Translations under genes and position numbers: made by a program | Notes under the pieces: generated by a model | What the model saw: the letters and a program-made list of their open reading frames with translations, nothing else | Database searches by the model: none | What the model was told of the DNA's origin: nothing | NCBI GenBank assembly: GCA_963663165.1 | Contig: OY760175.1 | Location: 5,120,001 to 5,184,000, forward strand | Length of the DNA: 64,000 nucleotides | From: an uncultured Desulfospira sp. | GTDB taxonomy: Bacteria > Desulfobacterota > Desulfobacteria > Desulfobacterales > Desulfobacteraceae | Direction of reading: 5' to 3' | In this document: piece by piece, positions 26,854 through 59,939 of the stretch | Layout: every line of letters begins with the position of its first letter | How positions within the stretch are numbered: the first letter of the stretch is position 1

Positions 26854-26869
26854 TGGTTTGATTTTTGCT
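26854..26869 (+). promoter_or_regulatory. Sigma54 promoter of the pseB operon
   Basis: TGGTTTGATTTTTGCT (GG-N10-GC). Confidence 0.6.
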
Positions 26870-26889
26870 TTATGTGTAAGCATCACGAT

Positions 26890-26965: not shown

Positions 26966-27028
26966 ACAGAACATAAATATCAATTTAAATCAACGGTGAT
27001 CATGACCCATAATCCTAAGGATGATACC

Positions 27029-28009: not shown

Positions 28010-28039
28010 CGGTTAACCCGGAATTTCAGGTAAAATTCA

Positions 28040-29077: not shown

Positions 29078-29080
29078 CAA

Positions 29081-30908: not shown

Positions 30909-30911
30909 GCT

Positions 30912-31628
30912 TTGCTGTTTGCCATTGGTGATATTCACGGGGAATCTGAAAAACTTCACGCGCTGTTATCCCATATCCATGATCTGGATCACCACCCGGA
31001 ACTGGTTTTTCTAGGGGATTATATTGACAAGGGAAAAGATGCCTCAGGCGTGATGATGCTGCTCAAGGATACGGCGACCCGGATACCCTGCCGTTTTTTA
31101 ATGGGAAATCACGAGTATTTCTGGCTCAATCTCCATGAGAAGGGGGAATCGGCCAAAAGATTTCTTGAGCGATACGGGGGAAAGGCAACCGCGGCATCTT
31201 TGGGGTGCAGGGACCTGGCACACACCAGAGAGAAACTGTTGCAAAGCCATGGGGAAATTTTGCTGAATCTATCCCTTTATTATCAAACAGATCATTATAT
31301 ATTTGTCCACAGCGGGATTCCCGGCGAGAAATTCACCCACCGCCCCGAGGACCTGAACCCGGAGGACTTTTTATTCAACCGGTATGATTTTCTTTCACAG
31401 ATCAAAGCTTATGCCAGGCATACGGTTGTTTTCGGGCACACCGCCTTTTATTTCCCTTATGTGGATTCCGTAAAGATTGGAATTGACACGGCCGCCGCAT
31501 ATGCCCCGGATCAGCCCCTTACGGCCCTTTGCCCGGACAAACGGTTTTTCCTTGACTCAAAAGGCACTTTAAAAAAATTAGAACATTTTTTACCCCAGAC
31601 CAGATGCCCGGTAATTTACAGGGGATGA
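30912..31628 (+). CDS. Calcineurin-like metallophosphoesterase
   Basis: GDIHG, GDYIDKG, GNHE, HSG, FGHT, IDT. Confidence 0.88.
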   Translation: MLFAIGDIHGESEKLHALLSHIHDLDHHPELVFLGDYIDKGKDASGVMMLLKDTATRIPCRFLMGNHEYFWLNLHEKGESAKRFLERYGGKATAASLGCRDLAHTREKLLQSHGEILLNLSLYYQTDHYIFVHSGIPGEKFTHRPEDLNPEDFLFNRYDFLSQIKAYARHTVVFGHTAFYFPYVDSVKIGIDTAAAYAPDQPLTALCPDKRFFLDSKGTLKKLEHFLPQTRCPVIYRG

Positions 31629-31648
31629 AAAAAAGAGGGGTGTTCAGG

Positions 31649-33397
31649 TCACTCTTTTTTGATGCTCAGGATATATTTATGCCCGTTCATCTCAAAGAAT
31701 AACGGGTATGCGGTATTGTCTGCAACCCGCATCAGGTTAAACTGCTCTTTTATGGTTTTATTCACATCCAGACGGGAATCTTCAGGGGTTCTTCTGCTGT
31801 AATAAGACGGCTTTCCCTCTTGCTGTTTTGCCTTGGAGATAACCTCAGGGTAGGTGTCCATAAATTCCAGGCAGAGGTCGACGGAATATTGCCCTTGTTT
31901 CTTTCGCAGCGCGTCTGCCAGTTCGTCGCCTTTAAACTGCATCTGCCGTTGGAGGTAAATCTGTCCGCTGTCAACTTGCGGCCGGGCTTCAAAAAGGGTT
32001 ATGGGAATATGGTTTTTTCCTTCCAGGATCTGCCAGGTCAACGGTGACCATCCCCTGCCCGAAGGAAGGTTGCTTTCATGAACTACCAGGTTGTGGGTAT
32101 TCCTGGCCAGCAGATCGTGGGGGATCATCTGTCCGCAGCCTAAAAAAAATGCCGCGTCGCCTTCTTTCAGGTCCGAAACAAGGTGGCCGCTGTTGACCTG
32201 GTGTCCCCTGGCGGTAAGGTCGTGTTCAAGTTGCTGGACAAACGGGTTTATCCAGGACTCTTTGTCCGAGACAATATTAATTTTCAGGTTAAATCCCCGG
32301 GTGCCGTGCATCAGGGATAAAATGATTTTCTGCCTTCCTTTGCCGTCAATAAGGCGGCCTGCGTTATGACTGATTTTTTTTCTTAATTCTTTATTTCCCA
32401 GCAGGGAATTTATTTTTTTGGCCGCTGCTTCTATGGAAATGCTTTCGTGCCAGCCACCGTTTATGCCGGCATTGGCAGTTTCGATCTGTTCAACAATTCT
32501 TTTTTGATTATCGGCAATAACAAAGAAAAGCGTCGGAACGTTAAAATATAAAAGTTCCAACGCCGTGCTGCCCCCGGCAGAAATGGCCGCATCTGCCCAG
32601 ATCATAAGTTCGGGCATGTTGGATGCATTGTCAATCACCTCAATGTCGTGAACAGACGCCTCGGCTTCTTTGGCCACGGATTCATGGTTCTGATTTCCGG
32701 GACCTAGGGCCACTTTGATATTAAGGGTTAAGGCAGGTAACCGGTTTAGGGCTTTAATGGTTTTTAGAGTGACATTGTCAGGGTCAGATCCGCCCATGGT
32801 AACCAGGATATTGGCAATGGGTTCTGTTTTGGGTATATCCGGCCTGTCAGCTGCTAAAAATTCGTCTCTTAACAGGGTGAAATCCGAACCCAGTAATGGT
32901 ATGGTGCCGGGCAGGGTGTGGTAGGGGATGGTCTGTGCCCCGATATTCTGGTTTAACAAAATATCGGCATGGTAAAAGGGCAGGTGGTTATAATCATCAA
33001 TGAGCATCAGCTTTATGCCGTGTGTCCTGATTTTTTTATGATAATCGCAGGTGAACTGGTATCCATCCACCACCATAACCCTTGCGTCCCTTTGGGCGGC
33101 CATGGAAAGAGCGGTGTCAATGTCCGCGGGGTCAGGGCAGCTTTTTTCAATGAGGCAGGTTTCAAAATTCAAGGATTGAAGCCGTTGCAGCAAAGCCTCG
33201 TTTGACAGGCAGCAGATAAACAGCACCGTGCCGCCCTGCTTCACCCATTCCTGGGCCAGGGCAATGCACCGCATGATATGCCCTGTTCCCATTCTGTCAT
33301 CTGCATCGGCCCGGATAATAAGGGTGTTTTTGCCTGAGCGGCCGGGTTGCCCATTGGTCACGATATGCGCCCCTTTTTGGTCATGGGTTTTTAACAC
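31649..33397 (-). CDS. pseG: PseG-like UDP-sugar hydrolase fused to a formyltransferase domain
   Basis: RADA...MGTGHIMRC, TMGGSDP, AGGSTALE, ADNQ; C-terminal HESNLPSGRGWSP and VDSG. The real start may be the GTG at 33361. Confidence 0.82.
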   Translation of the reverse strand: MLKTHDQKGAHIVTNGQPGRSGKNTLIIRADADDRMGTGHIMRCIALAQEWVKQGGTVLFICCLSNEALLQRLQSLNFETCLIEKSCPDPADIDTALSMAAQRDARVMVVDGYQFTCDYHKKIRTHGIKLMLIDDYNHLPFYHADILLNQNIGAQTIPYHTLPGTIPLLGSDFTLLRDEFLAADRPDIPKTEPIANILVTMGGSDPDNVTLKTIKALNRLPALTLNIKVALGPGNQNHESVAKEAEASVHDIEVIDNASNMPELMIWADAAISAGGSTALELLYFNVPTLFFVIADNQKRIVEQIETANAGINGGWHESISIEAAAKKINSLLGNKELRKKISHNAGRLIDGKGRQKIILSLMHGTRGFNLKINIVSDKESWINPFVQQLEHDLTARGHQVNSGHLVSDLKEGDAAFFLGCGQMIPHDLLARNTHNLVVHESNLPSGRGWSPLTWQILEGKNHIPITLFEARPQVDSGQIYLQRQMQFKGDELADALRKKQGQYSVDLCLEFMDTYPEVISKAKQQEGKPSYYSRRTPEDSRLDVNKTIKEQFNLMRVADNTAYPLFFEMNGHKYILSIKKE

Positions 33398-33643
33398 ATC
33401 AAAGGATATTTAACGGTTGCCATATGCTATCAAACATACGGCCGTATATCAATAAATCGGTCATGACGTCTTTCGTTTGGGAGAAATGGCCGGAAATTCA
33501 ATTTTTTTCTTGTATTTTATCCGGGTTTTAATGATAACCCATAGGACGGGGAAAGACCTCTTATAAGAAACTGGAGACAAGAGACAAGAGGGCGGAGTAC
33601 CTGCGGTGCCCAATTTATAGCCTGCTGTTGCCGGTATCTTCAG

Positions 33644-33701
33644 TTTCATTATTTGTTGTGGGCGGGTCTTGATTGGATAACCAAGACGGCCCGTGGCCGT
33701 T
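33644..33701 (-). repeat. ~90-bp dispersed hairpin element, copy C (partial)
   Basis: tttcattatttgttgtgggcgggtcttgattggataaccaagacggcccgtggccgtt. Confidence 0.8.
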
Positions 33702-33737
33702 CAAAAGAAACGCCTGTTTGAAATATGGATGAATGAA

Positions 33738-34424
33738 ATGACCAATATCGCCATCATACCGGCCAGGGGCGGATCAAAACGGCTTCCCATGAAAAATATC
33801 CTGCCGGTGCTGGACCGGCCCATGCTGTCCTATCCGGTAAAAGCAGCCCTTGACAGCCATCTGTTTGATCAGGTGATTGTGTCCACGGAAGATGAAACCA
33901 TTCAGGCGGCCGCCCTTCAAAGCGGGGCACGTGTTCTGGTGCGCCCTGGCGAACTGGCCCGGGACCGTTCCACAGTTGCCCAGGTCTGCGAGCATGTCCT
34001 CAACACCCTTGCCGGGGAAGGCGTAAACCCGGCATGGTTCTGCTGTGTTTACGCCACGGCCCTGTTTTTAAAACCCGAGGATTTCAAGGCGTCTTTTAAC
34101 CTTGGGAAAACCGTTCCTCAAGCCGATGTCATCATGGGGGTTTCCCGGTTTAACCTCCAGCCGTTGCAGGCCATGGAAAGAAAAGACGGGTTTTTAAAGC
34201 CTAAATGGCCTGAATACAAGCTGCAATCCCAGTTTCATCCGGACCTTGTGGCCAGCAACGGCACCCTGTATTGGGCCAGAACAGATTCGTTTTTAAAGAA
34301 AAAAACCTTTTATACCGACCGGCTGACAGGGTATGAAATTCCCTGGATCCGGGCCATTGATGTGGATACCCCCGAAGATTATCAAAATGCCCAAATGCTG
34401 GCCCCCCTTATTTTGGACCGGTAA
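33738..34424 (+). CDS. Acylneuraminate cytidylyltransferase (PseF/NeuA-like)
   Basis: AIIPARGGSKRLPMKNI, VSTED, IDVDTPED. Start placed at MTNIAII. Confidence 0.9.
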   Translation: MTNIAIIPARGGSKRLPMKNILPVLDRPMLSYPVKAALDSHLFDQVIVSTEDETIQAAALQSGARVLVRPGELARDRSTVAQVCEHVLNTLAGEGVNPAWFCCVYATALFLKPEDFKASFNLGKTVPQADVIMGVSRFNLQPLQAMERKDGFLKPKWPEYKLQSQFHPDLVASNGTLYWARTDSFLKKKTFYTDRLTGYEIPWIRAIDVDTPEDYQNAQMLAPLILDR

Positions 34425-34482
34425 ATTTCAAGGGGACACACAGTAAAAGGGCGTTGGCAGAATTTTTTAAAAAAGAGGTCTC

Positions 34483-35547
34483 ATGAATGTTCAATTGGAA
34501 AACAAGACCATTGGGGACGGCAACCCCGTATTTATCGTGTTTGAGGCGGGCCCTACCCATGATGGCCTGGATTGTGCCAAAGCCCTTGTTAAACATGCCG
34601 CAGCGGCCGGGGCCGATGCGGTCAAATTCCAGATCCTGGACCCGGACCGGCTGGTGCCGGATAAAACCCAACGCTTTTCATATGACATCCTGCTGGACAA
34701 AGAGACCGGCCGGCGGGAAATCAAAACAGAACCCCTGTACGATATTTTAAAGCGGCGGTATCTGACATTTGACCAGTGGCGGCAGGTTAAAGCCTGTTGC
34801 GACGAGCTGGGAATCATCTTCTTTTCTACGGCCACGTTTAAAGAAGAAGTGGATTTTTTGAAAGAAATCGGTGCCCGGACCATTAAAATCTGTTCCGGGG
34901 ATATTAACCATCTTCCCTTTATCCGGTATTGCGCCGGGACCGGCATGGCCATCCAGCTGGATACGGGAAATGCCACCATTGGCGAGGTTGAACGGGCCTA
35001 TGACGAAGTGATCCGGGCCGGCAATCCCAATGTGATTATCCACAACTGCCCTTCGGGATATCCGGCCCGCCTTGAAAGCATCAATCTAAAGATGATTCCC
35101 ACCTTAAAACAGATGTTCGGGTGCCCGGTGGCTTTCTCAGACCACACCCCGGGATGGGAAATGGATATTGCCGCAATTGCTTTAGGGGCCAATATGGTGG
35201 AAAAAACCATTACCCCGGACCGGACCACCCCGAGTGTGGAACATCTGTTTTCCATTGAGCCCCATGAAATGAAAGCCTTTGTAACATCGGTCCGGGATCT
35301 TGAAACGGCCCTGGGAGATTCAAGAAGGTGTCTTAAACAAGAGGAGCGCCAACGGGGAATAGGCGTTCGCAGGTCCATTGTGTTAAACCAGGATGTCAAA
35401 AAAGGCCAGACAATAGACAGTTCAATGATCGATTATGCACGGCCCGGAACAGGGATCTCCCCTGACATGGCCGATGTGGTGGTGGGGAAAATATTGACCA
35501 AAGACCGGACCAAAGGGGGAATCCTCCAATGGGGTGACTTTGCGTAG
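34483..35547 (+). CDS. N-acylneuraminate synthase family protein 2
   Basis: FEAGPTHDG, DAVKFQ, FSDHT, VEKT, and a SAF domain (RPGTGI). Confidence 0.88.
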   Translation: MNVQLENKTIGDGNPVFIVFEAGPTHDGLDCAKALVKHAAAAGADAVKFQILDPDRLVPDKTQRFSYDILLDKETGRREIKTEPLYDILKRRYLTFDQWRQVKACCDELGIIFFSTATFKEEVDFLKEIGARTIKICSGDINHLPFIRYCAGTGMAIQLDTGNATIGEVERAYDEVIRAGNPNVIIHNCPSGYPARLESINLKMIPTLKQMFGCPVAFSDHTPGWEMDIAAIALGANMVEKTITPDRTTPSVEHLFSIEPHEMKAFVTSVRDLETALGDSRRCLKQEERQRGIGVRRSIVLNQDVKKGQTIDSSMIDYARPGTGISPDMADVVVGKILTKDRTKGGILQWGDFA

Positions 35548-35574
35548 CTTTAAAGATAAGAAAGAGGAATAAAC

Positions 35575-37050
35575 ATGTCCCTGGTGACCTTGGGTGACTT
35601 GCTTCAAAAAGGACTTGCCTGCCATACGGCAGGCAGATTACAGGAAGCCGAAAAAATATACCGGCAGATTCTCGCACAGGTTCCGGAACATCCAGACGCC
35701 ACCCATTTTATGGGGGTTCTGGCCTACAATGTCGGAAAAAATGATGTGGCCAAGATTTACCTTAGAAAAGCCATTGCGCTGATGCCTGAGAATTCCGCAT
35801 GCTATTGCAATATGGGCAATGTGTTTCAGCATGAAAAAGCGTACGCCAAGTCAATGGTATGGTATAAAATGTCCATTGAATTGAATCCTCAAAACCAAAA
35901 GGCCCACAGCAATCTGGGCGTGGCATATCTCAGGCTTGGGAAATTGGAAAAGGCCTTGAAATCTATTGAGACGGCCATTTCAATTGATCCTGAATACACC
36001 GATGCCCTGGTCAACTACGGTGAAACCCTTAAGGCCATGGGGGATTATGATAAGTCCCTGGACGCATATGATAGGGCCATTGCCATTTCCCCTGAATCCG
36101 TTGACGCCCACTGGAACCGGTCTATTATCTGGCTTACCAAGGGGAATTTCAGGGACGGGTGGCCGGAGTATGAATGGCGGTGGCGCCGTCCGACAACCCG
36201 TAAGCGGATGTTTGCCACGGGAACACTTTGGCAGGGGCAGCCCATTGCGGGAAAAACCCTGTTTGTTTTTGAAGAGCAGGGGCTTGGGGACACCATCCAG
36301 TTTGTCCGTTTCCTTCCCATGCTTAAACCATTGGGCTGCCGGGTGATTTTTGAGGTGGGGTTCCCCCTGATCCGGCTGATGAATGACACGAAATTATATG
36401 ACCGCCTCTGGGTTGGGCTCAAAGATGTGGATACCCGGCCTGTGGACCGGTTTGATTTTTACGCGCCCCTGTTGTCGTTGCCCGGGATTCTAAAGACAGA
36501 GGTTAAGACAATTCCAGCCCATATGCCATACCTTAAAGCGGACTTAAATCTTTGCCGTATCTGGAAAGGCCGGATGGCCCGGGATAACTCTTTTAAGGTG
36601 GGGCTTGTATGGGCAGGTCATCCGGATCATAATAACGATGCCAAGCGGTCCATTCCGTTACAGATGTTTCAGGAACTTGCCCATATTAAAGGCGTTTCTT
36701 TTTACAGCCTTCAAAAAGACAAGCATGACCAGTGGACGGATATGGACAGCCTGAAAATATTTGAAAAGGACTTTGGCCCTGAAATTTCAGACTTTGCAGA
36801 TACGGCCGCCATCATTGAGAATCTGGATCTTGTCATATCCGTGGACACGTCCGTGGTTCATCTGGCCGGTGCTTTGGGCAAACCTGTCTGGACCCTTATC
36901 CCGTTTGAACCTGACTTTCGCTGGCTGCTTGACCGGGAGGATTCCCCCTGGTATCCGACCATGAAACTTTTCAGGCAGCCGGGCTACGGGGCGTGGGAAC
37001 CGGTTTTAAAACGGGTTGCCCAGGCCCTTTCAAAAAAAATTCAGGGGTGA
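35575..37050 (+). CDS. TPR-repeat glycosyltransferase (GT9-like C-terminal domain)
   Basis: About 5 TPRs, then GWPEYEWRW, EQGLGDTIQFVR, VGLVWAG, LDLVISVDTSVVHLAGALG, SPWYP. Confidence 0.88.
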   Translation: MSLVTLGDLLQKGLACHTAGRLQEAEKIYRQILAQVPEHPDATHFMGVLAYNVGKNDVAKIYLRKAIALMPENSACYCNMGNVFQHEKAYAKSMVWYKMSIELNPQNQKAHSNLGVAYLRLGKLEKALKSIETAISIDPEYTDALVNYGETLKAMGDYDKSLDAYDRAIAISPESVDAHWNRSIIWLTKGNFRDGWPEYEWRWRRPTTRKRMFATGTLWQGQPIAGKTLFVFEEQGLGDTIQFVRFLPMLKPLGCRVIFEVGFPLIRLMNDTKLYDRLWVGLKDVDTRPVDRFDFYAPLLSLPGILKTEVKTIPAHMPYLKADLNLCRIWKGRMARDNSFKVGLVWAGHPDHNNDAKRSIPLQMFQELAHIKGVSFYSLQKDKHDQWTDMDSLKIFEKDFGPEISDFADTAAIIENLDLVISVDTSVVHLAGALGKPVWTLIPFEPDFRWLLDREDSPWYPTMKLFRQPGYGAWEPVLKRVAQALSKKIQG

Positions 37051-40835: not shown

Positions 40836-43631
40836 ATGTCTTTATCCAGCGCACTTTTCACAGGAACCAGTGGATTGAAGAATATGGGCAACGGCATGCA
40901 GGTGGTTGGTAACAACATTGCCAACACCAATACCGTTGGATTCAAGGGGGCTGCCTCCACGTTTGCTGATACCCTGTATGAAAATGTGGCCACCCAGGCC
41001 GGTACCGCACAGATGGGGCGAGGCATGTCCGTAGGGGATATTGCTACGGATTTCAGCCAGGGATCTTTTGAATCCACGGGCAATACCACGGACCTTTCCA
41101 TTGGCGGTGACGGGTTTTTTATCGTCAGCCAGCCCGATTCCGAAGAAAAATATTACACCCGGGCCGGTAATTTTTATTTTGATGAAGACGGTCAGCTGGT
41201 GAATCCGGAAGGGTATGTGGTCCAGGGCTGGGAACTGGATGAAGACACCGGAGAGGATGTCGGGGCCATCGGGGATCTGGTTCTTGAAGAGTTTACCTCT
41301 CCGCCAAAGGAAAGCACCACGGTTACCGCCATTACCAACCTGGATGCCGATGCGATTTCCCAGGCGGTTGTTTTGTCCAACGTCTGGGACTCTTCTGAAG
41401 ACGAATATATGGGGTCGGGCAATTATGAATACCAGACCGTTATCCAGGTATATGATTCCCTGGGGTCCACCCATGATGTGACCATTTATTATGATAAAAT
41501 TTCAGGCACGGAATGGGAGTACATCATTACCTGCAACCCGGAAGAAGACATGCGCAATCTGGTGCAGGGGACTGATGCCCAGGGCCTTTTGGCAAGAGGT
41601 TCCATTACCTTTAGTGAAAGTTCCGGTGATATCCTGGACCTGACCCTGGAGGAATTTACCGGCCGGATAGGGAATTTTACCGCCAACGGCCTGAACACAG
41701 TGGATGAAATTGAATACAATATTGTGGATTATGACGCCCTGTCTTTAGACGGTTACGGGTTCCAGTTCGAGTATGACGGCGCCAACTGGGGTTTTGCAGA
41801 CATTGATGGTGACGGCGTGGTCACCTCTGCGGATAAACCGGCCAACTATCCCAATGCTTATATTATCTATTCCGATGCCACTTCAGTTGAAATCTCATTT
41901 GACGGTTCAACTGATGAACCTGACCTGAAGATTGAGTTGTCCCAGCCGGCTGTGGCAACAGATTCATTCGGATTTGATATCAACGGGGAAGAAAGTATTC
42001 ATATTCAGGGCATTGAAGGGCTGACCTATACCGGAGATACGGCCAATGACAACACCAGCCTTTCCATTAACGATCCCGGGGTCATGACCCATGATACCGA
42101 GGATGTGGGGATTGTCTGGAATCCCGTGGCCCAGCAATGGTACTGGAGCAACCCGGAGCAGGCTGAAGATGAGGGCACCCTGCTAAGTGACGCCACCCTT
42201 GGCGGAGTGGACCAGGATGAAACCACATTTTTAAGCATAAAAAACGCATCGGAAATGGTCATGCTGGCCGATGACGTGACCCTTGCCGTGGACTACCGGA
42301 CCGGGGAATGGGACTGGAACATGCCGCTCAAAGCCGATGATTTTATAAATGAAACCTTTAATATCGGCCAGGGAAACAACAATCCCAGTGTCACTGTGGT
42401 GACTCAAGGAACCCAGGGCGCCATCGCCTCTACAGATGCCGGCGGCACATCCACTGCCGTCACCCTGACATGGGACGGGGCCGCCTGGGCGGCCAGTTCC
42501 GGCGGCGGACAGACCCAGATTGTCATTCTGACCTCCAGCAGCGACGATTCCACAGTTCAGTTCATGATCTGGGAAGCCGATGGGTCTACAACTCCCAGTA
42601 ACGGGGCATCCGTAGTCAAGTATTCCTTTAATACCCCCCTGACCACCACCGGCGGGGACACCATTGAGTTTACCATTGATCCGTCGCCTCCGGCAGAATA
42701 CCCCAATGCCGTGCTGACCACCTCCGGGGCCACCACCCTGGGCATCGGGATTGATCTGGACAATGATTCCAGTGTGGACCTGCAGATGATCACATCGGCC
42801 TCTGGTGCAGTTACAGTGCTTTCCGGCGGGCTGACCGCCACCTTTGACATTGACCCGGATACGGAACCGCCCAATTACTCGAATGCCACCCTGACCGGGG
42901 ACCAGACAGAGGTGATCATTGATCTTGACGGGTCCGGCAACGAAGGAGATGATGACGACATCGTCTTTACGTTTGAAAAGAACCTTGATTATGGTGCCAA
43001 CACGGATGTTTACGATAACCGGAGTGTTATTAATTTTGATATCCTGGGCTCTACGGCCTGGACCGCCATTGAAAAGGCCGGTATCACCAATACCGGGTAT
43101 TACTCGTTTACCGTAGATTTTCTGGGAGGCGATTACGGCACCACGGAAATGAACCTGGCCCTTGATTTCGGCACCCAGTTTGATGGTGAAAATTTTGTCA
43201 ACGACTCGTTATCCACCACCCAGTACGCCAAATCCTCTTCAACGGTATACCAGGACGCAGACGGGTATGCTGCCGGGGACCTGACCGGTGTGGATGTGAA
43301 TTCCGAAGGGGTGATTACCGGCATCTACTCAAACGGTCAGCTGATTCCGTTGTTCCGGGTGGGCCTGGCCAAGTTCTACAACAATTACGGGCTGTCCAAC
43401 GAGGGCGGCAACCTTTACTCCGAGACCAACGAGAGCGGCAACGCCATTACCAACAAGCCCGGAGAGAATGGCCTGGGCACCATTTCCCCCAATTCCCTTG
43501 AAATGTCCAATGTGGATATTTCAGACGAGTTCGTTGCCATGATCGAAATCCAGCGCGGGTACGAAGGAAACTCAAAAACCATCACCACCGTGGATGAAAT
43601 GATGGAAACCGTTATCAATATGAAACGGTAA
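40836..43631 (+). CDS. flgE: Flagellar hook protein FlgE, 931 aa
   Basis: GNNIANTNTVGFK, TDLSIGGDGFF, YTRAGNF, YDSLG, LEMSNVDISDEF. Confidence 0.96.
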   Translation: MSLSSALFTGTSGLKNMGNGMQVVGNNIANTNTVGFKGAASTFADTLYENVATQAGTAQMGRGMSVGDIATDFSQGSFESTGNTTDLSIGGDGFFIVSQPDSEEKYYTRAGNFYFDEDGQLVNPEGYVVQGWELDEDTGEDVGAIGDLVLEEFTSPPKESTTVTAITNLDADAISQAVVLSNVWDSSEDEYMGSGNYEYQTVIQVYDSLGSTHDVTIYYDKISGTEWEYIITCNPEEDMRNLVQGTDAQGLLARGSITFSESSGDILDLTLEEFTGRIGNFTANGLNTVDEIEYNIVDYDALSLDGYGFQFEYDGANWGFADIDGDGVVTSADKPANYPNAYIIYSDATSVEISFDGSTDEPDLKIELSQPAVATDSFGFDINGEESIHIQGIEGLTYTGDTANDNTSLSINDPGVMTHDTEDVGIVWNPVAQQWYWSNPEQAEDEGTLLSDATLGGVDQDETTFLSIKNASEMVMLADDVTLAVDYRTGEWDWNMPLKADDFINETFNIGQGNNNPSVTVVTQGTQGAIASTDAGGTSTAVTLTWDGAAWAASSGGGQTQIVILTSSSDDSTVQFMIWEADGSTTPSNGASVVKYSFNTPLTTTGGDTIEFTIDPSPPAEYPNAVLTTSGATTLGIGIDLDNDSSVDLQMITSASGAVTVLSGGLTATFDIDPDTEPPNYSNATLTGDQTEVIIDLDGSGNEGDDDDIVFTFEKNLDYGANTDVYDNRSVINFDILGSTAWTAIEKAGITNTGYYSFTVDFLGGDYGTTEMNLALDFGTQFDGENFVNDSLSTTQYAKSSSTVYQDADGYAAGDLTGVDVNSEGVITGIYSNGQLIPLFRVGLAKFYNNYGLSNEGGNLYSETNESGNAITNKPGENGLGTISPNSLEMSNVDISDEFVAMIEIQRGYEGNSKTITTVDEMMETVINMKR

Positions 43632-44003: not shown

Positions 44004-44129
44004 TAAATTCTTAATGAACTTGAATATGCGGTGACCTTTTAAGGCCTTTGGGCCGGATTGGCTCAACGGCAGCCCAACATGGGGCGGTGCCGGGAAATTT
44101 CCGGTATCCGGCCCGGATCGGGGGAGATT

Positions 44130-44723
44130 TTGTTTAAAAAGAAATCGAAAAAAGAAGCGCCTGAAGAAAATAAAGAAGAAAAGGCCGAGGATGCGCCGGA
44201 TCAGGAATCAGGAGAACAGCCGGAGAAAAAATCAATCATCAAACGGCTTCTTTCAAAAAAAATGATATTGATCATTGGGGGTGTCCTGATCCTTGGCTTA
44301 GCCGGGGGCGGGGCCTGGTTTTTCTTTTTTTCCGGGTCTCCTGAACCGGAAACGGAACCTGCGACTGAACAGGCGGCCGCCGGGCAGGAAGGGGAAACGG
44401 TCGTGCCCGAGATCCTGTTTGAAGATATTGTTACCCTGGAACCTTTTGAGATGATTCCATTAAAGTCGGGATCTTCCATGCGGTCTGTGACGTTGAATGT
44501 TTCCATTGAGATCTTGGACCCGGAATCCCGGGCACAGGTGTATTCAAGGGAAGACCGGATACGGATTATCATCCAGGATAAGGTCAGGGAATATACCTGG
44601 CTTGACCTGAGAAGTGCTGAAGGAAAGATCCGGCTCAAATACGATCTTCTCCAGAGTATCAATCACCTGTTTTCAAAACCCATGGTCAGAAATTTGTACT
44701 TTACAACCCTTATAATGCAGTGA
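44130..44723 (+). CDS. fliL: Flagellar basal body protein FliL
   Basis: Single TM (GGGAWFFF), LEPF, EGKIRLK, VRNLYFT. Likely start is the TTG at 44130 after GGGGAG. Confidence 0.88.
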   Translation: MFKKKSKKEAPEENKEEKAEDAPDQESGEQPEKKSIIKRLLSKKMILIIGGVLILGLAGGGAWFFFFSGSPEPETEPATEQAAAGQEGETVVPEILFEDIVTLEPFEMIPLKSGSSMRSVTLNVSIEILDPESRAQVYSREDRIRIIIQDKVREYTWLDLRSAEGKIRLKYDLLQSINHLFSKPMVRNLYFTTLIMQ

Positions 44724-44730: not shown

Positions 44731-45723
44731 ATGAGTGAAATTCTATCCCAGGACGAAGTTGACAGTCTATTAGACGGCCTTGATTCAGGAGAGGTAGAAA
44801 CTGAAAAGGACGTGGCGGAAGCCCCGGAGGCTTCCGACGGTGTCAGCGTCTATGATTTTACCAGTCAGGATAAGGTGGTCCGGGCCCGGATGCCCACCTT
44901 TGATGTCATCAATGAACGGCTGTCCAGAGAGGTTCGGGCCACGCTGTCCTCCTTGCTCCAGACCAATGTGGATGTGGGGGCCAATCCCTTTGACACCTTG
45001 AAATTTTCAGAGTTTGTCAGAAGCCTGCCCGTTCCCACAAGCCTTCATGTGTTCCGGTTGGAACCCTTGAGAGGGCACGGCCTGGTAGTGTTTGAAAGCC
45101 AGCTGGTTTACAACCTCATTGATACCTTTTTCGGGGGAGAGGCCCTTGGAAAGGCCAGGGTTGAAGGCCGGGAGTTTACCACCATTGAAGAGGTCATGAT
45201 CAAAAAGGCCGTGGTGGCGGTGTTAAAAAATATTGAAGCGTCCTGGGCCCCCATTGAACCGGTTAAAACCTCTTTGATCCGTTCGGAAATGAACCCTCAG
45301 TTCACCGCCATTGTTCTGCCCACGGACCTGGTCATTGTCACCCGGTTTGAAATTGAACTGGAGCAGGCCGCCGGAAACCTGGTGGTCTGTTATCCTTATT
45401 CCATGATCGAGCCCATGCGGCACAAGTTGTCTTCCGGGGTCCAGGCGGAGATTGAAGAAATCGATACCACCTGGCAGAAAATGATCCGGGAGGTCATTCT
45501 CAACTCGGAAGTCGATTTGAAGATTATGCTGGGCAAGACGGAAATTACCGGGGAACGGTTGCTTTACATGCAGAAAGGGGACGTGATCCAGCTGGATAAC
45601 GACGCGGCAGACCCCCTGACCTGCTATGTGGACGGTCTGGAAAAGCTTAAAGGGTATATCGGGGTCCAGAGGGGATTCCAGGCATTCCAGATTATCGAAA
45701 AATTAATAACGGAATGTGGGTAA
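44731..45723 (+). CDS. fliM: Motor switch protein FliM
   Basis: [33 protein letters not shown]. Confidence 0.97.
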
Positions 45724-53222: not shown

Positions 53223-54104
53223 TTGGATCAGGCAAAAGGCTTAAGGGATTTGGCGAAAACCCGGCAACAAAAAAGGAGTGTTCACCCCATGGCAGCTCAA
53301 AATGCCCCCAGGGTCATTGCCGTCACCAGTGGAAAAGGCGGTGTCGGGAAAACAAATATTGTCGGTAACCTGGCGGTTTCCCTGGCCCGGAAGGGCAAAC
53401 GGATCGTTATTATTGACGCCGATGTCGGGCTGGCCAACATTGATATCCTTTTTAACCTGCGTCCCAAATACAGTATCCGCCACGTGGTGACGTCTGAAAA
53501 GCGCCTGGACCAGGTCATGGTCACCTCTGAGCACGGGATTAAAATCATTCCCGGCGGATCAGGGTTTGCCGACCTGACCAACCTTACCCAGGGAGAAAAA
53601 CTCAACCTGCTCAGTGAATTTGAAACCCTGGCCCCCCAGGCGGATCTGATCCTGGTGGATACCGGTGCCGGGATTTCTTCAAACGTTCTATACTTTAACT
53701 CAGCCGCCGATGACTGTGTGGTGGTTTCCACGGCAGAGCCCACATCCATTACCGATGCCTATGCCCTGATGAAAGTCATGTCCCAGGAATACGGGACAAG
53801 ACGGTTTAAGCTTATCGTCAATGTCGTAGAGTCTGAAAAAGAGGGCAAGCGGGTGTTTGCCACCTTAAGCCAGGCCCTGGACAAATTTTTGAAAAATGTG
53901 GTCCTGGAGTTTCTCGGATATATCCCTTTTGATAAACAGGTTCAACAATCGGTCCGCAAAAGGAGCCTGTTCATGGACATGGTTTCTGATACCCCGGCCG
54001 CTCTGGCCATGGACCGGATTGCCCGTGATCTTGAGAACAGTCCCAGCAGGGGTGACGGAAATTTGACGTTTTTTATGGACAAGGTGTTCCGGACCGGAAC
54101 CTGA
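53223..54104 (+). CDS. flhG: MinD-like ATPase FlhG
   Basis: DQA N-terminus, SGKGGVGKT, DADVGLAN, EPTSITDAYA. Confidence 0.95.
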   Translation: MDQAKGLRDLAKTRQQKRSVHPMAAQNAPRVIAVTSGKGGVGKTNIVGNLAVSLARKGKRIVIIDADVGLANIDILFNLRPKYSIRHVVTSEKRLDQVMVTSEHGIKIIPGGSGFADLTNLTQGEKLNLLSEFETLAPQADLILVDTGAGISSNVLYFNSAADDCVVVSTAEPTSITDAYALMKVMSQEYGTRRFKLIVNVVESEKEGKRVFATLSQALDKFLKNVVLEFLGYIPFDKQVQQSVRKRSLFMDMVSDTPAALAMDRIARDLENSPSRGDGNLTFFMDKVFRTGT

Positions 54105-54296: not shown

Positions 54297-55046
54297 GTGA
54301 CCAGAACAGAGAAAAGCACATTAAAAAAGGATCATGCCTGGCGTCAGAACGCCATTGTTGAATATGCGTTTCTGGTGAAGCAGATTTCCTCCCAGTTTTC
54401 CATGAGACTGCCTTCCAGCGTGCTGTTCGACGAACTGGTGTCGGCCGGGTCCCTCGGCCTGATCGATGCTGTGGACAAGTTTGACCCTGAACGGCATGTC
54501 AGCTTGAAAACCTATGCCAAGTACCGGATAAAGGGTGCCATTCTAGATGAGCTTCGAAGCATGGATACCTATTCAAGATCCATGCGCAAAAAAATCCAGG
54601 ATATTACCAAAGCCGTAAAATTAATTGAGGACGAAAAGGGCGCGCCGGCCACTGATCAGGAAACAGCAAACGCCTTAGGCATTGATCTTGCATCTTATCA
54701 GGATATGTTAAGGGATATTCACAGTGCTGCGGTTTTGAGCCTTGATGAGTTCATTAAAACAAAGAAAAACGATACATCCTCCCAGACCCGGTTCCAGGTA
54801 GGGCTCAAGGGAGAAGAAAACCCGGCAGACGATCTGGCCAGAAAAGAACTCAAACAGGTTTTAGTGGATACCATAAAGACCCTGACCGAAAAAGAGCAAA
54901 TGGTGGTTTCCCTGTATTATTATGACGAGCTGACCTTAAAGGAAATCGGTGAAATGCTTTCTTTGACCGAATCCCGGATCTGTCAGATCCATACCGGCAT
55001 ACTGGTTAAAATGAAGGCCAGGATGCAGGGGTACTTAGGGGAATAG
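54297..55046 (+). CDS. fliA: Flagellar sigma factor FliA (sigma28)
   Basis: GLIDAVDKFDP, RIKGAILDELR, LYYYDELTLKEIG...ESRICQIH. Confidence 0.96.
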   Translation: MTRTEKSTLKKDHAWRQNAIVEYAFLVKQISSQFSMRLPSSVLFDELVSAGSLGLIDAVDKFDPERHVSLKTYAKYRIKGAILDELRSMDTYSRSMRKKIQDITKAVKLIEDEKGAPATDQETANALGIDLASYQDMLRDIHSAAVLSLDEFIKTKKNDTSSQTRFQVGLKGEENPADDLARKELKQVLVDTIKTLTEKEQMVVSLYYYDELTLKEIGEMLSLTESRICQIHTGILVKMKARMQGYLGE

Positions 55047-55174: not shown

Positions 55175-57052
55175 ATGCCCGAACAAGAAGAAGATCTAAT
55201 CTCCCAGGATGATATTGACGCGCTGTTGGATTCATCCCTTCTTGGGGGTGATGACGAAGACGAAAACTCGGATGAAGATTCGGCTGAAGATGAACTTGGG
55301 GAATTGTCCCAGGATGATATTGACAGCCTTCTCAACGGTCCGGGACCGGATTCGGGCGGTGATGGGGATGATTCTGGTGGCGATGATTCAGGCGAGTTAT
55401 CCCAGGATGACATCGACCGGATGATGGGCGGGAACTCTGAATCGGAGGCGGATACTGCAGAGGAAGAAGAGGCCGGGGAGCTGTCCCAGGATGACATTGA
55501 CCGGATGATGGGCGGGAACTCTGAACCGGAGGCGGATACTGCAGAGGAAGAAGAGGCCGGGGAACTGTCTCAGGATGACATCGACCGGATGATGGGCGGG
55601 AACTCTGAACCGGAGGCGGATACTGCAGAGGAAGAAGAGGCCGGGGAACTGTCTCAGGATGACATTGACCGGATGATGGGCGGGAACTCTGAACCGGAGG
55701 CGGATACTGCCGGGGAAGAAGAAGCCGGGGAACTGTCCCAGGATGATATCGACCGGATGATGAACTTTGATGCCCCGGCAGAAGAAACCGGGGAGGCTGA
55801 CGAAGAAGATGTGGAGCTGATCTCTCAGGAAGATATCCAGCGCCTGATGAATACTTCGGGTGATGACGCCGGGGAAGAACCGGCTGCCCAGGAAGATAAC
55901 CCGCCGGCTGATGAAGAAGACATGGAGTTAATCTCCCAGGATGATATTGACGGCCTGATTCCGGAGGATGCCCCCCCGGAACCCGAGAGTATTGTCCCGG
56001 AAAGTGAACCCGAGGAGGCGGTTGAGGATGATTTTATCATTGACGAATCTGAAGCCGTTGATCCCGCAGATGCCCTGATTACCCAGGAAACCATTGATGA
56101 ACTGCTTGCAAAGGGGCCTGAACCTGAACCGGAACCTGAGCCGGAAGAACCCCCTCAGGCTGAAGATTCAATTGAAGACTTGGGCGAAGACTCCAGTGAG
56201 CCCATTGTCCTGGACGGTGATGAAGCGCCTGATGATCTGGATGATCTGGACGGGGTGTCCCAGGATGATATTGACAGCCTGCTCCAGGATGAAGATGACG
56301 ACGCCATGGGGGATGATGACGATGATATTTTAATATCCCAGGACGATATTGATACCCTGCTCATGGCGGCGGATCAGGAGGATGAAGATGTCCTTGGCGG
56401 CTTATTGGACGAAGAAGACAAGTTAGAAGGCTTTGATGAAGACGATGTTTTAGACGGTGATGACGAAGGCGACCAGGTGGTCCTGGAAGGCGGTGACGAG
56501 GTCCTTGATAGGGAAGGGGATGATGCAGATGCGCCGGTCAAGAAACGTTGGTATAAATCCAAGCTCATGGTGGCCATGCTGTCGGGAGTTTTGGTTCTGG
56601 GCATCATGATTCCGGCGGCCTATTTCCTGTTTTTTTCAAAACCGCCGGTCAAGATTCCTGAAAACCAGCCCGTTCAAACGGCTGATGTTCAGGATGTGGC
56701 GGTTGAAACCGTTACCCTTGATCCAAAGCCCTACGTTGAAATAAAAAAATCAGGGTCCATTGAGTTGAACAGTTTTCTGATCCTGGCATCCGATGAAGCA
56801 AGCGGCATTGCCTATGTCCAGGCAGACGTCACCATTGATTATACCGATCAGCGGGCATACCATGAAATCCAGGGGAACCTGCCCTTTTACAGGGATTTGA
56901 TTTTCGAGTCCATTCAAAAAAGCCTGGACCGGGACAAGGAAAATAAAGTCACCAAATCGGATTTGATCTGGGAAGTGGAAAATACCTTGAAAAAGGTGTT
57001 GCCGGCCCATTATATAGAAAGGGTGAAGTTTACCGTATTTAAGACGACTTAA
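55175..57052 (+). CDS. Membrane-anchored FliL-like protein with a long acidic N-terminal arm carrying 12 SQDDID motifs
   Basis: Acidic repeat region, then KKRWYKSK, a TM helix, and a FliL-like C-terminal domain (IELNSFLI...YRDLI...IERVKFT). Confidence 0.75.
   Translation: MPEQEEDLISQDDIDALLDSSLLGGDDEDENSDEDSAEDELGELSQDDIDSLLNGPGPDSGGDGDDSGGDDSGELSQDDIDRMMGGNSESEADTAEEEEAGELSQDDIDRMMGGNSEPEADTAEEEEAGELSQDDIDRMMGGNSEPEADTAEEEEAGELSQDDIDRMMGGNSEPEADTAGEEEAGELSQDDIDRMMNFDAPAEETGEADEEDVELISQEDIQRLMNTSGDDAGEEPAAQEDNPPADEEDMELISQDDIDGLIPEDAPPEPESIVPESEPEEAVEDDFIIDESEAVDPADALITQETIDELLAKGPEPEPEPEPEEPPQAEDSIEDLGEDSSEPIVLDGDEAPDDLDDLDGVSQDDIDSLLQDEDDDAMGDDDDDILISQDDIDTLLMAADQEDEDVLGGLLDEEDKLEGFDEDDVLDGDDEGDQVVLEGGDEVLDREGDDADAPVKKRWYKSKLMVAMLSGVLVLGIMIPAAYFLFFSKPPVKIPENQPVQTADVQDVAVETVTLDPKPYVEIKKSGSIELNSFLILASDEASGIAYVQADVTIDYTDQRAYHEIQGNLPFYRDLIFESIQKSLDRDKENKVTKSDLIWEVENTLKKVLPAHYIERVKFTVFKTT
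55391..55762 (+). repeat. In-frame 84-bp tandem repeat x4.4
   Basis: Unit encodes GELSQDDIDRMMGGNSEPEADTAEEEEA; copies are near-identical at the DNA level. Confidence 0.95.
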
Positions 57053-57092: not shown

Positions 57093-57386
57093 GTGACAAC
57101 CATTCCGGGCCACAATCAGGTCCTGCAACATTCCGGGGCTGCCCAGGAAGCCAGCCAGCAGGCCCATTCCCCAAAACCATCCCCTGAGCATGCCGCCGGG
57201 ACGGCCCAGGCCCAGGAGGTTATCCGGAATTCAACCATTCAGGCATCTGACGAGTCTGAACGATTGAAAAAAGAAAAAAAAAAGGAACGGGCAGAAGCCG
57301 CTAAAAAGAAAGCCTCTGCTGACCCAAAGGAAGATCAGTTCCCGGATCCGGATGCCCCGGGAGGCCTGTTGGATACAATTATATGA
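57093..57386 (+). CDS. Hypothetical small flagellar-locus protein
   Basis: AAGGAGG RBS, 97 aa, C-terminal GGLLDTII. Confidence 0.65.
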   Translation: MTTIPGHNQVLQHSGAAQEASQQAHSPKPSPEHAAGTAQAQEVIRNSTIQASDESERLKKEKKKERAEAAKKKASADPKEDQFPDPDAPGGLLDTII

Positions 57387-57988
57387 CCCAGTTGCTCTCA
57401 ATTGAATTTTTAGTTGCCGCGTTAATAATTATAAACTGTTTTCTGGTTATTTTTATATGGATCATTATCCGGCGGGTCAACCGGATCTGTGTCGAACACC
57501 AGGCGGGCAGCAGGGCAGCAGAGAACCATGAACCGGATAAGGAGGGTTTAGAGGCGGTTTGCGGGTCTTCGAGAAAAGTGCTGGATCTTTTGGAATCCCT
57601 GGTCAGGGAGGCAACCGATGCGGCCCAAAATTTTGAAGATCAGATTAAAGAAAAACGGACCGTATCCAAAAAGTTGAACAAGGCCCTGGACTCACGGATT
57701 ATCAGTATCAACCTGCTGTTGTCCCGGTCCGAAGCTCTCCAGAAGAAGTTTGAGGAACAGCAGCTCAAATGGCTGGACCAGGCCGCCCTCAAAACAGCCT
57801 GCCAGCCCGTGCCTTTTTCAGGCAGCATGAACATCCTGGACCAGCAGAACCGGATTATTGACCTGTACCATGGCAATAAAGACGTGGATACTATTGCACA
57901 GACCCTTTCCATTCCCAAAGAAGAGGTCCGGCTTGTGATTGACCTTAAGGAAAAGTTCAGGGCAATGGAGCAGGAGACAAGAGAATAG
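57383..57988 (+). CDS. Membrane protein with coiled coil and C-terminal HTH (DUF2802/SwrB-like)
   Basis: N-terminal TM; C-terminal GNKDVDTIAQTLSIPKEEVRLV; downstream of fliA. Confidence 0.6.
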   Translation: MTQLLSIEFLVAALIIINCFLVIFIWIIIRRVNRICVEHQAGSRAAENHEPDKEGLEAVCGSSRKVLDLLESLVREATDAAQNFEDQIKEKRTVSKKLNKALDSRIISINLLLSRSEALQKKFEEQQLKWLDQAALKTACQPVPFSGSMNILDQQNRIIDLYHGNKDVDTIAQTLSIPKEEVRLVIDLKEKFRAMEQETRE

Positions 57989-58025: not shown

Positions 58026-59657
58026 ATGATCCCGGGCATCCCTGTTGGAAAGGCTGATATGATCCTGGCCCGATCCGGATCTGCCGGGTTGGATACCCTG
58101 ACGGGGGGAAAGGAAAACGCTGTGCTGACCGCCAGGGTCATGGGGATGGCCAAAGGCCCCGGACAGGCCATGCTGATGATCAATGGTCAGGAAACGCTTG
58201 TTAAAACAGAGCTTTCCCTTGTGCCGGGCCAGAAGTTGCGGCTTACGGTTAGCCACCAGGCAAAGGATACCGTTGTTCTCAAGCCTGCAGAGCCTGTGGC
58301 GGTATCCGGAAAAGTAATCCTTGGAACCCAGATTCAACCATCCGATATCGTCCTGCCCCGGTCAGAAACAGCCGGATCATCGTCCCGGCAGATATTCAAG
58401 GAAAACACCGTCCTGACCGCCAACGTCCTGGAGCAGTCGCCCGGTTCCGGACAGGCCCGGCTGATGATCAATGGCCGGGAAATGGTGGTCAAAACCGGCC
58501 TTTCCCTGACACCGGGTCAGGACTTGCCCCTTAAGGTTTCCCAGACAACGGATACCGTTGTTTTCAAACCGGCTGGATCCATGGAGGCATCCGGAAAAAT
58601 GATCCTTGAAACGCATATGGGGAAGTCTGAAATTGTTCTGCCCCGGTCCGGAACGGCCGGATCACAACCCCTTCCGGTTTTTAAGAAAAACACGGTCCTG
58701 ACCGCCAGGGTCATGGGGCAGCCGCCCGGACCCGGACAGGCCCGGCTTATGATCAACGGCCAGGAACTGGTGGTGAAAACCGATCTTTCCCTTGCGCCGG
58801 GGCAGGATTTGCAGCTTCGGGTTTCACAGGCAACAGATACGGTTGTCCTTAAACCGGTGGGCCCCATGGATACCCCCGCCTCCCCGGGCCTTGGCCGGCT
58901 GCTTACCTTTTTTGCAAAAGAAACCGGAATTCAGGATATGTTCAAGGCAGATGATCCGTCCCTGCCGGCGGCCCTGGGCCGGACCGCCTTAAAATCCGAT
59001 AAGGCGGAGCCGGGTTTTCTGCCAAAACTGCTGGAAACCGGGGGATTGCTTCTGGAAAAAAAACTAAGCGCGTTTATCCGGGATGGCAAACTGGATGTGC
59101 TTGAAAAAAATTTTTCAGCCATTCTTGAACAGGATACCAAGGGTGGGGCCATGAAACTTGCCGGGGAGAGCGTGGCCAAAGGCGGTCAAAACAGCCCGGC
59201 AGCGGTCCTGCTGGATACCATTGAAAATCTTCAGATCATGAATAGCCAAGCGGATTCCGGGCGATATCTGCTCGCATTCCCCGTGTTAGAGGATTCCGGC
59301 TTTAATTTCGGGCAGATTTATTTTGATCTGGGCGGAAAAAAAGAAGCCAGAGACGGAAAAGAAGAAAAAAATATCAAGGTCTCTTTTCTTCTGGACATGA
59401 CCCGCCTTGGCCGGGTCCGGGCAGATTTTTCCATCCTGGACCGTGCGGTGAGCGGCCGGTTTCTGCTGGAGACTGAAGATATCTGCTCTTTTACGCAATC
59501 CAGGATATCCGATCTAGGCTCCAGACTTGAAAAAATCGGGTATCACCTGATTAACATAGACTGCCAGGTGGCCCAAAAAAATGAGCTGGCCCCTTATGTG
59601 TTCATGGAATCCATGCAGGAAAAACAGCCGGACCGGGTGGTCAATATTGTCATTTGA
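58026..59657 (+). CDS. FliK-like protein with three N-terminal repeats
   Basis: Three copies of VLTA.V...GQA.LMING....VKT.LSL.PGQ.L.L.VS; C-terminal LDMTRLGRVRA. Confidence 0.7.
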   Translation: MIPGIPVGKADMILARSGSAGLDTLTGGKENAVLTARVMGMAKGPGQAMLMINGQETLVKTELSLVPGQKLRLTVSHQAKDTVVLKPAEPVAVSGKVILGTQIQPSDIVLPRSETAGSSSRQIFKENTVLTANVLEQSPGSGQARLMINGREMVVKTGLSLTPGQDLPLKVSQTTDTVVFKPAGSMEASGKMILETHMGKSEIVLPRSGTAGSQPLPVFKKNTVLTARVMGQPPGPGQARLMINGQELVVKTDLSLAPGQDLQLRVSQATDTVVLKPVGPMDTPASPGLGRLLTFFAKETGIQDMFKADDPSLPAALGRTALKSDKAEPGFLPKLLETGGLLLEKKLSAFIRDGKLDVLEKNFSAILEQDTKGGAMKLAGESVAKGGQNSPAAVLLDTIENLQIMNSQADSGRYLLAFPVLEDSGFNFGQIYFDLGGKKEARDGKEEKNIKVSFLLDMTRLGRVRADFSILDRAVSGRFLLETEDICSFTQSRISDLGSRLEKIGYHLINIDCQVAQKNELAPYVFMESMQEKQPDRVVNIVI

Positions 59658-59669: not shown

Positions 59670-59939
59670 GTGACCAGGAAACCGATAAAAAAGGCCGTGG
59701 CCTTAAGGTACGATAGAACAAAAGACCCGGCCCCGAGGGTAACCGCCAAAGGCAAGGGGCCGGTGGCACAAAAGATCATTGAGCTTGCCCAAAAACATGA
59801 TATTCCTATAAAAGATGACCCTGACCTTATCGAAGTCCTTTCCACTCTGGATATAGACCAGGAAATTCCCCCGGAACTTTATGTGGCTGTGGCCGAATTA
59901 TTGGCCTTTGTTTATTCCTTAAACAAGGAAAAAGGCTAA
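59670..59939 (+). CDS. Stand-alone FlhB C-terminal domain protein (EscU/YscU/HrcU family)
   Basis: KKAVALRYD...APRVTAKGKG..A..I...A; EIPPELYVAVAELLAFVY. Confidence 0.92.
   Translation: MTRKPIKKAVALRYDRTKDPAPRVTAKGKGPVAQKIIELAQKHDIPIKDDPDLIEVLSTLDIDQEIPPELYVAVAELLAFVYSLNKEKG

Follow-up and report, generated by a model that had tools for sequence, protein, structure and literature searches.

Why does a flagellar gene cluster that already encodes a normal FliL also encode a second FliL-like protein, with a long acidic N-terminus on which a FliM-type docking peptide is repeated twelve times? The question is raised by a 64,000-nucleotide stretch of DNA from an uncultured Desulfospira sp. (contig OY760175.1 of assembly GCA_963663165.1, positions 5,120,001 to 5,184,000; this whole stretch is called the window, and positions are given in its own numbering). 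The gene in question is an open reading frame (ORF) at 55175..57052 on the + strand, coding for 625 aa plus a stop, and we call its product the arm protein after its N-terminal region. It is a FliL paralogue in which a known docking peptide has been multiplied; FliL and the peptide are both known, and the combination is new in the literature covered. The author of an earlier note on this DNA knew of no description of such a protein, and in open-access papers and bioRxiv we found none of a protein of FliL type that carries EIDAL or CheY-binding motifs as repeats.

We tentatively favour a function as a motor-anchored, cytoplasmic and multivalent mimic of the FliM N-terminus, with phosphorylated CheY (CheY-P) as the predicted ligand, and would rate this at slightly less than an even chance. 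In such a mechanism the periplasmic FliL-fold domain and the transmembrane (TM) helix would, by analogy, place a second FliL at the stator units around the motor, and the disordered, polyanionic arm of 455 residues would hang in the cytoplasm beside the C-ring. On it, 12 short amphipathic helices would be displayed as copies of the docking peptide at the FliM N-terminus. Phosphorylated CheY would be captured by the arm, so that the switching signal is concentrated or buffered next to FliM (as an antenna, buffer or sink), and the arm might pass CheY-P on to the switch.

A divergent FliL domain behind an acidic arm

From its N-terminus, the protein (all parts on the + strand) consists of an acidic arm (residues 1–455, 55175..56539), which from its composition and an AlphaFold2 (AF2) model is predicted to be disordered except for short motif helices and is probably cytoplasmic; a basic patch, KKRWYKSK (residues 456–463, 56540..56563), which precedes the TM helix on what would be the cytoplasmic side; a single TM helix (residues 464–487, 56564..56635), recognised by hydrophobicity and as a helix in the AF2 model; a putative periplasmic linker (residues 488–526, 56636..56752), modelled with low confidence; and a predicted periplasmic domain of FliL fold, which is SPFH-like (residues 527–625, 56753..57049), assigned by AF2, Foldseek and hhalign. 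The arm contains 100 Asp and 84 Glu residues but only 2 Lys and 7 Arg (D+E 40%), giving a net charge of −175. In the full-length AF2 model, 321 of the 625 residues have a predicted local distance difference test (pLDDT) value below 50, and short helices are placed on 9 of the 12 motifs. The earlier note had proposed a very acidic N-terminal arm, a basic patch, a TM helix and a FliL-like C-terminus, and the 625-aa ORF bears out each of these.

The basic patch is lengthened to poly-lysine in four orthologues (L026, L019, L023 and L025), with up to about 12 Lys in L026. The acidic segments near the patch are also longer in these four.

Curated family models do not recognise the C-terminal domain. 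The full-length protein has no match in Pfam at E≤1, and its C-terminal 166 aa reach E 0.043 against PF03748, with 14.8 bits against a cut-off of 24.6. The NCBIfam FliL models give E values of about 1e-3 (13–19 bits, against cut-offs of 131–197), although three of four alignments are close to full length. The sole match of a sequence-profile search of the PDB was 9hmf_O, the FliL of C. jejuni (E 0.8). The predicted structure decides the matter. An AF2 model of the C-terminal part, built from a 31-row alignment (mean pLDDT 74.8, mostly 84–92 within the domain), comprises the TM helix and an alpha/beta domain, with a disordered linker between them. When this was compared with the PDB by Foldseek, the best 10 matches were all FliL periplasmic domains (7sgn, 9hmf_O, 6ahq and 6ahp; E 1.8e-4 to 8.5e-4; TM-score normalised by target 0.66–0.79), followed by stomatin, erlin and HflK/C from the wider SPFH group. 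By hhalign, the profile of the arm protein family matches the canonical FliL of the window with a probability of 95.1% (E 3.2e-8), in an alignment that spans only the TM helix and the first strands of the domain. Because of the fold matches and the hhalign match to the organism's own FliL, we consider the protein a FliL paralogue and, on its modelled fold, its C-terminal domain a divergent FliL. The comparison with FliL models suggested earlier was thus divided in its outcome: the curated models stay below their cut-offs, whereas fold and profile-profile alignment match FliL.

As had been claimed, the arm gene comes after fliA and is extra to a normal fliL. Canonical fliL (44058..44723, +, 221 aa; PF03748, E 8.8e-13) lies upstream of fliM, and fliA, encoding sigma-28 (54297..55046, +), lies directly upstream of the arm gene. 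With the FliL proteins of known structure (PF03748; 7sgn from H. pylori, 6ahq/6ahp from V. alginolyticus and 9hmf_O from C. jejuni) the arm protein shares a single TM helix, a periplasmic SPFH-like alpha/beta domain and a place in a flagellar cluster. It differs from them in scoring below the Pfam and NCBIfam cut-offs, in being extra to a canonical fliL, and in its 455-aa acidic N-terminus with 12 motifs. The organism's own FliL has about 64 residues before the TM helix, and these are without a docking-type motif.

For the orientation of the protein, the relevant background is that canonical FliL has its N-terminus inside and its domain in the periplasm. The hydrophobic segment at 464–487 is the only one in the protein and is followed by 138 residues; neither an N-terminal signal peptide nor a second hydrophobic segment was seen in the 625 aa. 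There are 5 Lys/Arg in the 15 residues before the TM helix and 2 after it, and a chain of 455 residues with a charge of −175 seems implausible as a translocated N-terminal tail. We infer from these features that a cytoplasmic arm is the only reasonable topology. This agrees with the earlier proposal, made from the positive-inside rule, to which the absence of a signal peptide and the homology to the periplasmic FliL domain now add.

A second, divergent FliL paralogue within one flagellar system has a precedent in MotF of Sinorhizobium meliloti, which interacts with FliL, MotA and MotB (PMC9541039). Compared by that description, MotF is different in being a protein of 187 aa, mostly periplasmic in the AlphaFold account given there, with no cytoplasmic arm or motif array (PMC9541039).

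The motif array, its conservation and its distribution

A pattern scan of the ORF identified 12 copies of the motif hSQ(D/E)(D/T)I(D/Q)xhh, beginning at residues 9, 44, 75, 103, 131, 159, 187, 216, 253, 302, 361 and 387, and their sequences are exactly those which the earlier note had listed. Motif 1, ISQDDIDALL (residues 9–18, 55199..55228), stands at the start of the chain, as the peptide does in FliM, and has an orthologue identity of 85%. Motif 2, LSQDDIDSLL (residues 44–53, 55304..55333), lies inside an invariant GELSQDDID and is the copy nearest to the organism's own FliM N-terminus. Motifs 3–7, at residues 75 to 187 of the list above (55397..55762), are five copies of LSQDDIDRMM in 28-aa units, which at the DNA level form an 84-bp tandem repeat (55400–55762, 4.3 copies, 95% matches). 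Since these five of the 12 copies derive from a recent tandem repeat, there are only 8 distinct motif sequences. Motif 8, ISQEDIQRLM (residues 216–225, 55820..55849), and motif 9, ISQDDIDGLI (residues 253–262, 55931..55960), were found by pattern scan and alignment. Motif 10 is a variant, ITQETIDELL (residues 302–311, 56078..56107), preceded by a conserved IDESEAVD block and kept as a distinct class across genera; motif 11, VSQDDIDSLL (residues 361–370, 56255..56284), is a member of the conserved class V(S/T)Q(E/D)DIDALL. Motif 12 continues into an extension, together ILISQDDIDTLLMAADQEDEDVLGGLL (residues 384–410, 56324..56404), with identities of 0.82–0.98, the highest conservation within the whole protein.

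A chance origin of the array is excluded. In 20,000 shuffles of the arm that kept its composition, the mean number of full motifs was 0.0001 and the maximum 1, against 12 observed. In a six-frame scan of the 6.74-Mb genome there were 16 matches, of which 12 are those described here, one is the FliM N-terminus and three occur in other proteins. The latter three were rejected as docking peptides, as they lie inside apparently globular proteins resembling a helix-turn-helix (HTH) regulator, an acetyl-CoA hydrolase/transferase and HtpX.

Conservation was assessed in an alignment of the arm protein with 28 full-length orthologues, from which the truncated L007 and L015 had been left out. Over the aligned positions, the 120 motif residues are 76% identical and the folded domain 51%, while the other 335 residues of the arm reach 37%, a value already inflated by their D/E composition. 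The earlier note had tied its idea of a docking array to the motifs being more conserved than the linkers across homologues, and they clearly are. In the first 70 residues, every invariant column apart from the start Met falls within motifs 1 and 2, and the linker between these is variable in both length and sequence. The information content of the motif is highest at positions −2 to +8, in a logo that is partly circular as the instances were chosen by the pattern. Judged by this alignment, it is the motifs within the arm that are under selection.

The number of copies per full-length orthologue ranges from 3 to 14, and results from independent tandem expansions: L012 has eight LSQDDIDGLM, L013 five LSQDDIDSLL, and the protein described here five LSQDDIDRMM. 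Even its nearest relative, L001, in which the anchor domain is 91% identical, has only three LSQDDIDRMM units.

Searching with the C-terminal 171 aa (HMMER, against 1.84 billion representatives) gave 116 clusters at E≤1e-3, most of them of 350–950 aa with the domain at the extreme C-terminus. Among the 119 proteins of the family with at least 300 aa, 118 carry at least one motif and 112 at least two (median 6, maximum 16). The distant members that could be named come from Desulfamplus, Desulfobacterium and metagenome-assembled genomes (MAGs) of Desulfobacterales. Database names are "hypothetical" or "FliL family protein", and some JGI labels read "FimV". Of 121 genomes taken as a sample of the family to which the window belongs, 86 encode the arm protein and 96 encode FliM. 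FliM is also present in 82 of the 86 carriers, and the four exceptions are fragmented assemblies of 370–1180 contigs. Conversely, 14 genomes have FliM without the arm protein; six of these have a divergent FliM of 324 aa and the rest are fragmented MAGs. The arm gene is thus confined to flagellated genomes. When the phylum was sampled evenly with 300 genomes, only 2 others matched the narrow profile at E≤1e-8, so that the close family is essentially limited to its own order, the distant members requiring a broader profile; on these profile searches the arm protein is a family of the Desulfobacterales.

The six genomes with the divergent FliM (G310, G338, G347, G356, G359 and G364) comprise five of one genus plus G359. 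In the two whose FliM N-termini were read (G310 and G364) the docking-peptide start is retained.

These data bear on the simplest alternative, in which the arm is a ligand-free polyanionic spacer, entropic bristle or cation buffer and the motif repeats are a by-product of tandem duplication. It accords with the extreme charge of −175, with the derivation of five copies from a recent 84-bp duplication, and with the freedom with which linker length and copy number vary. However, the motifs outside the tandem array are 65–98% identical across genera and the linkers are not, expansions in separate lineages have always duplicated a motif-containing unit, and a motif is retained even in members in which the anchor domain is only 23–30% identical. 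We regard a ligand-free arm as highly improbable.

As judged by the alignment, the arm motifs are not interchangeable but form several classes. Those conserved in position are an N-terminal ISQDDIDKLL at residue 12, the repeated GELSQDDIDxL(L/M) units, a central ITQETxDxLI after the IDESEAVD block, and V(S/T)Q(E/D)DIDALL. The final copy, ISQDDIDTLL, makes a further class and is fused to a conserved extension, MAADQEDEDVLGDL, the top-conserved stretch of the protein, downstream of which lies a conserved DQVVLEG patch (residues 433–439, 56471..56491, +) visible in the orthologue alignment.

This diversity raises a different explanation, namely that the arm has another reader or several (another CheY-like receiver, MotA, FliG or FliN), or forms a condensate, with the classes serving different partners; the motifs would in that case look like the FliM N-terminus because they have the helix type, and not the ligand, in common with it. 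Besides the positional conservation of the classes, the block at 384–410 is far longer than a FliM-type peptide, the DQVVLEG patch stands separate from it, and there is a systematic difference between arm and FliM motifs (DDID versus DEVD, see below). Against this, the repeated GELSQDDIDxL(L/M) units are almost identical to the FliM peptide, only flagellated genomes have the gene, and no alternative reader emerged from the analysis. We think it unlikely that such readers account for the array.

CheY-P and FlhG as candidate partners

In the textbook view, the chemotaxis signal enters the motor through the single N-terminal peptide of FliM. In the window this peptide is encoded at 44740..44772 (+), and it appears to be the model that the arm motifs copy: when arm motifs such as ELSQDDIDSLL are compared with the organism's own FliM N-terminus, 8 of 10 motif positions are the same, and the differences (E to D and V to I) are conservative. 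The arm protein resembles FliM in the sequence pattern (which is also found in some FliY and FliN), in the predicted short helix, and in having its first motif at the N-terminus of the chain. It differs in the number of copies, which is one in FliM but 12 here (3–14 among full-length orthologues, with a maximum of 16 across the wider family), and in being a membrane protein rather than a C-ring subunit. There is also a consistent difference in form, as the arm has DDID where FliM of the same family has DEVD. The FliM form SQDEVD is invariant in 20 of 20 family genomes read, while among 712 arm motifs DDID occurs 383 and EDID 100 times, and the FliM-type DEVD falls outside the 12 commonest forms. 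This systematic difference indicates that the arms are under a constraint of their own and are not homogenised with fliM.

Two partners are known for the FliM peptide. The N-terminal EIDAL motif of FliM is described as the high-affinity site for CheY-P (PMC6946799; bioRxiv 10.1101/2022.04.21.489128), and in Shewanella putrefaciens both the binding of FlhG and its polar localisation are reported to require this motif, which is also sufficient for them (bioRxiv 10.1101/2022.04.21.489128).

A candidate ligand, a canonical CheY of the motor type, is present in the genome. This 124-aa CheY (L035:7503-7874) is encoded beside a CheX-type phosphatase, matches the CheY of Salmonella and E. coli at E 7.6e-43, and retains D12, D13, D57, T87, Y106, K109, K119 and K122, residues which we take to have roles in FliM binding (Y106, K119 and K122 presumably on the alpha4-beta5-alpha5 face). 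A second CheY is located in a che operon, with PDB entries 4hnr and 4h60 as the most similar. The C-terminal peptide of CheZ is a further docking site for CheY-P, and resembles the arm motifs in being a short, acidic and amphipathic peptide that captures CheY-P from a flexible tether. However, a CheZ chain carries a single copy, attached to a phosphatase, whereas this genome has CheX/CheC-type phosphatases instead, at three loci; CheZ (PF04344) was matched neither in the arm protein nor in the whole genome, with an E. coli control that did match.

Synteny was compared in 30 loci of other species, all of Desulfobacteraceae type and including Desulfospira joergensenii DSM 10085; upstream DNA is available for 27 of these. 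In 25 of the 27, fliA is immediately 5' of the arm gene; the exceptions (L014 and L022) have the arm gene straight after flhG, with no fliA between. The distance from the fliA stop to the start of the arm gene is 10–25 nt in most loci, and the 128 nt of the window are an exception. We conclude from the short distances that the arm gene belongs to the flhA-flhF-flhG-fliA operon and that a separate promoter is unlikely. Within the 128-bp gap, no convincing sigma-28-type promoter was seen by eye and a pattern scan of the window had no match there; a sigma-70 promoter scan performed no better than on shuffled sequence.

The operon also contains flhG (53223..54104, +), two genes upstream, which codes for a MinD/ParA-type ATPase and is a candidate alternative partner of the motifs. 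The arm could then be an FlhG-docking landmark, which recruits or sequesters FlhG at the finished motor or pole and so helps to set flagellar number and place, working like the FliM N-terminus and like HubP, the acidic polar scaffold of Vibrio and Shewanella. Although FlhG has its role with FliM early, during assembly of the C-ring, an anchor of FliL type implies a late arrival with the stators, and 3–14 sites per molecule could titrate FlhG rather than localise it. The shared operon with flhF and flhG, and the position directly after flhG in the two exceptional loci, favour such a landmark, as does the published work on FlhG: its polar localisation is lost without the FliM motif, and interactions of FlhG with HubP have been reported (bioRxiv 10.1101/2022.04.21.489128).

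The layout of the arm protein is also that of HubP/FimV, with a membrane anchor and a long, acidic and repetitive cytoplasmic region, and some members carry the JGI label "FimV". HubP/FimV proteins recruit ParA/MinD-type ATPases including FlhG; the link between HubP and FlhG is described in two reports (bioRxiv 10.1101/2022.04.21.489128; PMC8789113). The arm protein differs from them in its opposite orientation (arm N-in, domain C-out), in an anchor of FliL fold instead of LysM, and in repeats that are FliM-type peptides. No LysM or FimV domain was matched in it by Pfam or NCBIfam, which counts against a landmark of this kind. A genome-wide search with TIGR03505 had no match, but had none in the control genomes either and is uninformative. 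A complex prediction for FlhG with arm residues 1–70 scored 0.00, was run without controls, and is neither for nor against binding. On balance we think a role of the arm as an FlhG landmark rather doubtful, yet it is a serious rival to docking of CheY-P.

Given that the FliM motif is also a docking site for FlhG and that flhG is in the same operon, the antenna or sink for CheY-P, proposed in the earlier note without mention of FlhG and favoured here, is one of two well-founded readings, and several points weigh against it. FlhG is reported to bind the same FliM motif, and mimicry at the level of sequence cannot separate CheY-P from FlhG. The arm gene sits with flhF, flhG and fliA and not with che genes, and the motor-type CheY is about 120 kb away. 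The DDID form, compared with DEVD in FliM, may mean that the arms are tuned to a different affinity or reader, and the distinct classes (ITQETxDxLI, and ISQDDIDTLL with its 15-residue conserved extension) are a hint of several partners. The place of FliL is at the stator units of the flagellar motor, but as the Pfam and NCBIfam models for FliL stay below their cut-offs, this location is assigned to the arm protein by analogy with FliL and MotF. We infer not only the stator location but equally the topology, the CheY-P ligand and any physiological effect.

The surrounding gene cluster and the meaning of the arm

The window is almost wholly flagellar. It begins with flgI (partial), flgN, flgK, flgL, fliW, two flaG, fliS and fliD; then follow two flagellins and a sugar-modification island, then fliK, flgD, flgE, fliL, fliM, fliN, fliO, fliP and fliR, and then flhB, flhA, flhF, flhG, fliA and the arm gene. 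Downstream of the latter are four ORFs, coding for 97 aa, 201 aa, a FliK-like protein of 543 aa, and an 89-aa protein similar to the C-terminus of FlhB.

The first two of these (57093-57386 and 57383-57988) are small, conserved and placed right after the arm gene, with overlapping stop and start codons. The 97-aa product has no family match, and no match to it was found in L014 and L022; the 201-aa product has a hydrophobic N-terminal segment and a weak match to DUF6115/DUF2802. Both appear to be unstudied members of the arm-gene operon. The 543-aa protein (58026-59657) is a second FliK-like protein, with a Flg_hook match below cut-off (E 2e-4) and three visible internal repeats of about 95 aa. 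In the 89-aa protein (59670-59939) the match to FlhB is confined to the C-terminal part of FlhB (PF01312, E 2.7e-23), and in 25 of the 30 loci an FlhB-like gene was found downstream of the arm gene.

Several axial proteins of the cluster are outsized. The flagellins have 960 aa (16503-19385) and 798 aa (19983-22379), with central inserts that match hexapeptide or left-handed beta-helix repeats, and FlgK (1417 aa, 4988-9241), FlgL (772 aa, 9335-11653) and FlgE (931 aa, 40836-43631) are also enlarged. The sugar-modification island (26084-37050), between the flagellin genes and fliK, codes for two NeuB-type synthases, a PseB-like dehydratase, an ATP-grasp enzyme, a cytidylyltransferase, a PIG-L deacetylase and a TPR-glycosyltransferase, and probably serves flagellin glycosylation. 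Two ORFs between flagellin and sugar genes (22765-24945 and 24848-26056, − strand; 726 and 402 aa) have no Pfam match at E≤1e-6.

If our interpretation is correct, a membrane protein that multiplies the FliM peptide 3–16 fold on a FliL-type anchor would be new. It would shape the local pool of CheY-P and the sensitivity of the motor or, with FlhG as the partner, couple the finished motor to the control of flagellar number. A more far-reaching picture, which we offer as speculation and consider rather improbable, is that rings of the FliL paralogue around the stators hang a polyanionic brush, with hundreds to thousands of FliM N-terminus mimics, around the C-ring. Such a brush would add to motor control a compartment-like layer not known before, which concentrates CheY-P, and possibly FlhG via separate motif classes, at the motor. 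Tethered to the brush, CheY-P could be offered in trans to the switch sites of FliM/FliN, and the gain of the brush would be tuned over evolution by expansion or contraction of the tandem array.

The natural variation in copy number provides a ready dose series, beginning with the three units of the closest relative against the five found here. The analysis also draws attention to a conserved and unstudied operon tail in Desulfobacteraceae, with four further genes downstream of fliA. Taken at the level of sequence, the arm protein points to a possible, hitherto undescribed layer of flagellar motor control in sulfate-reducing bacteria.

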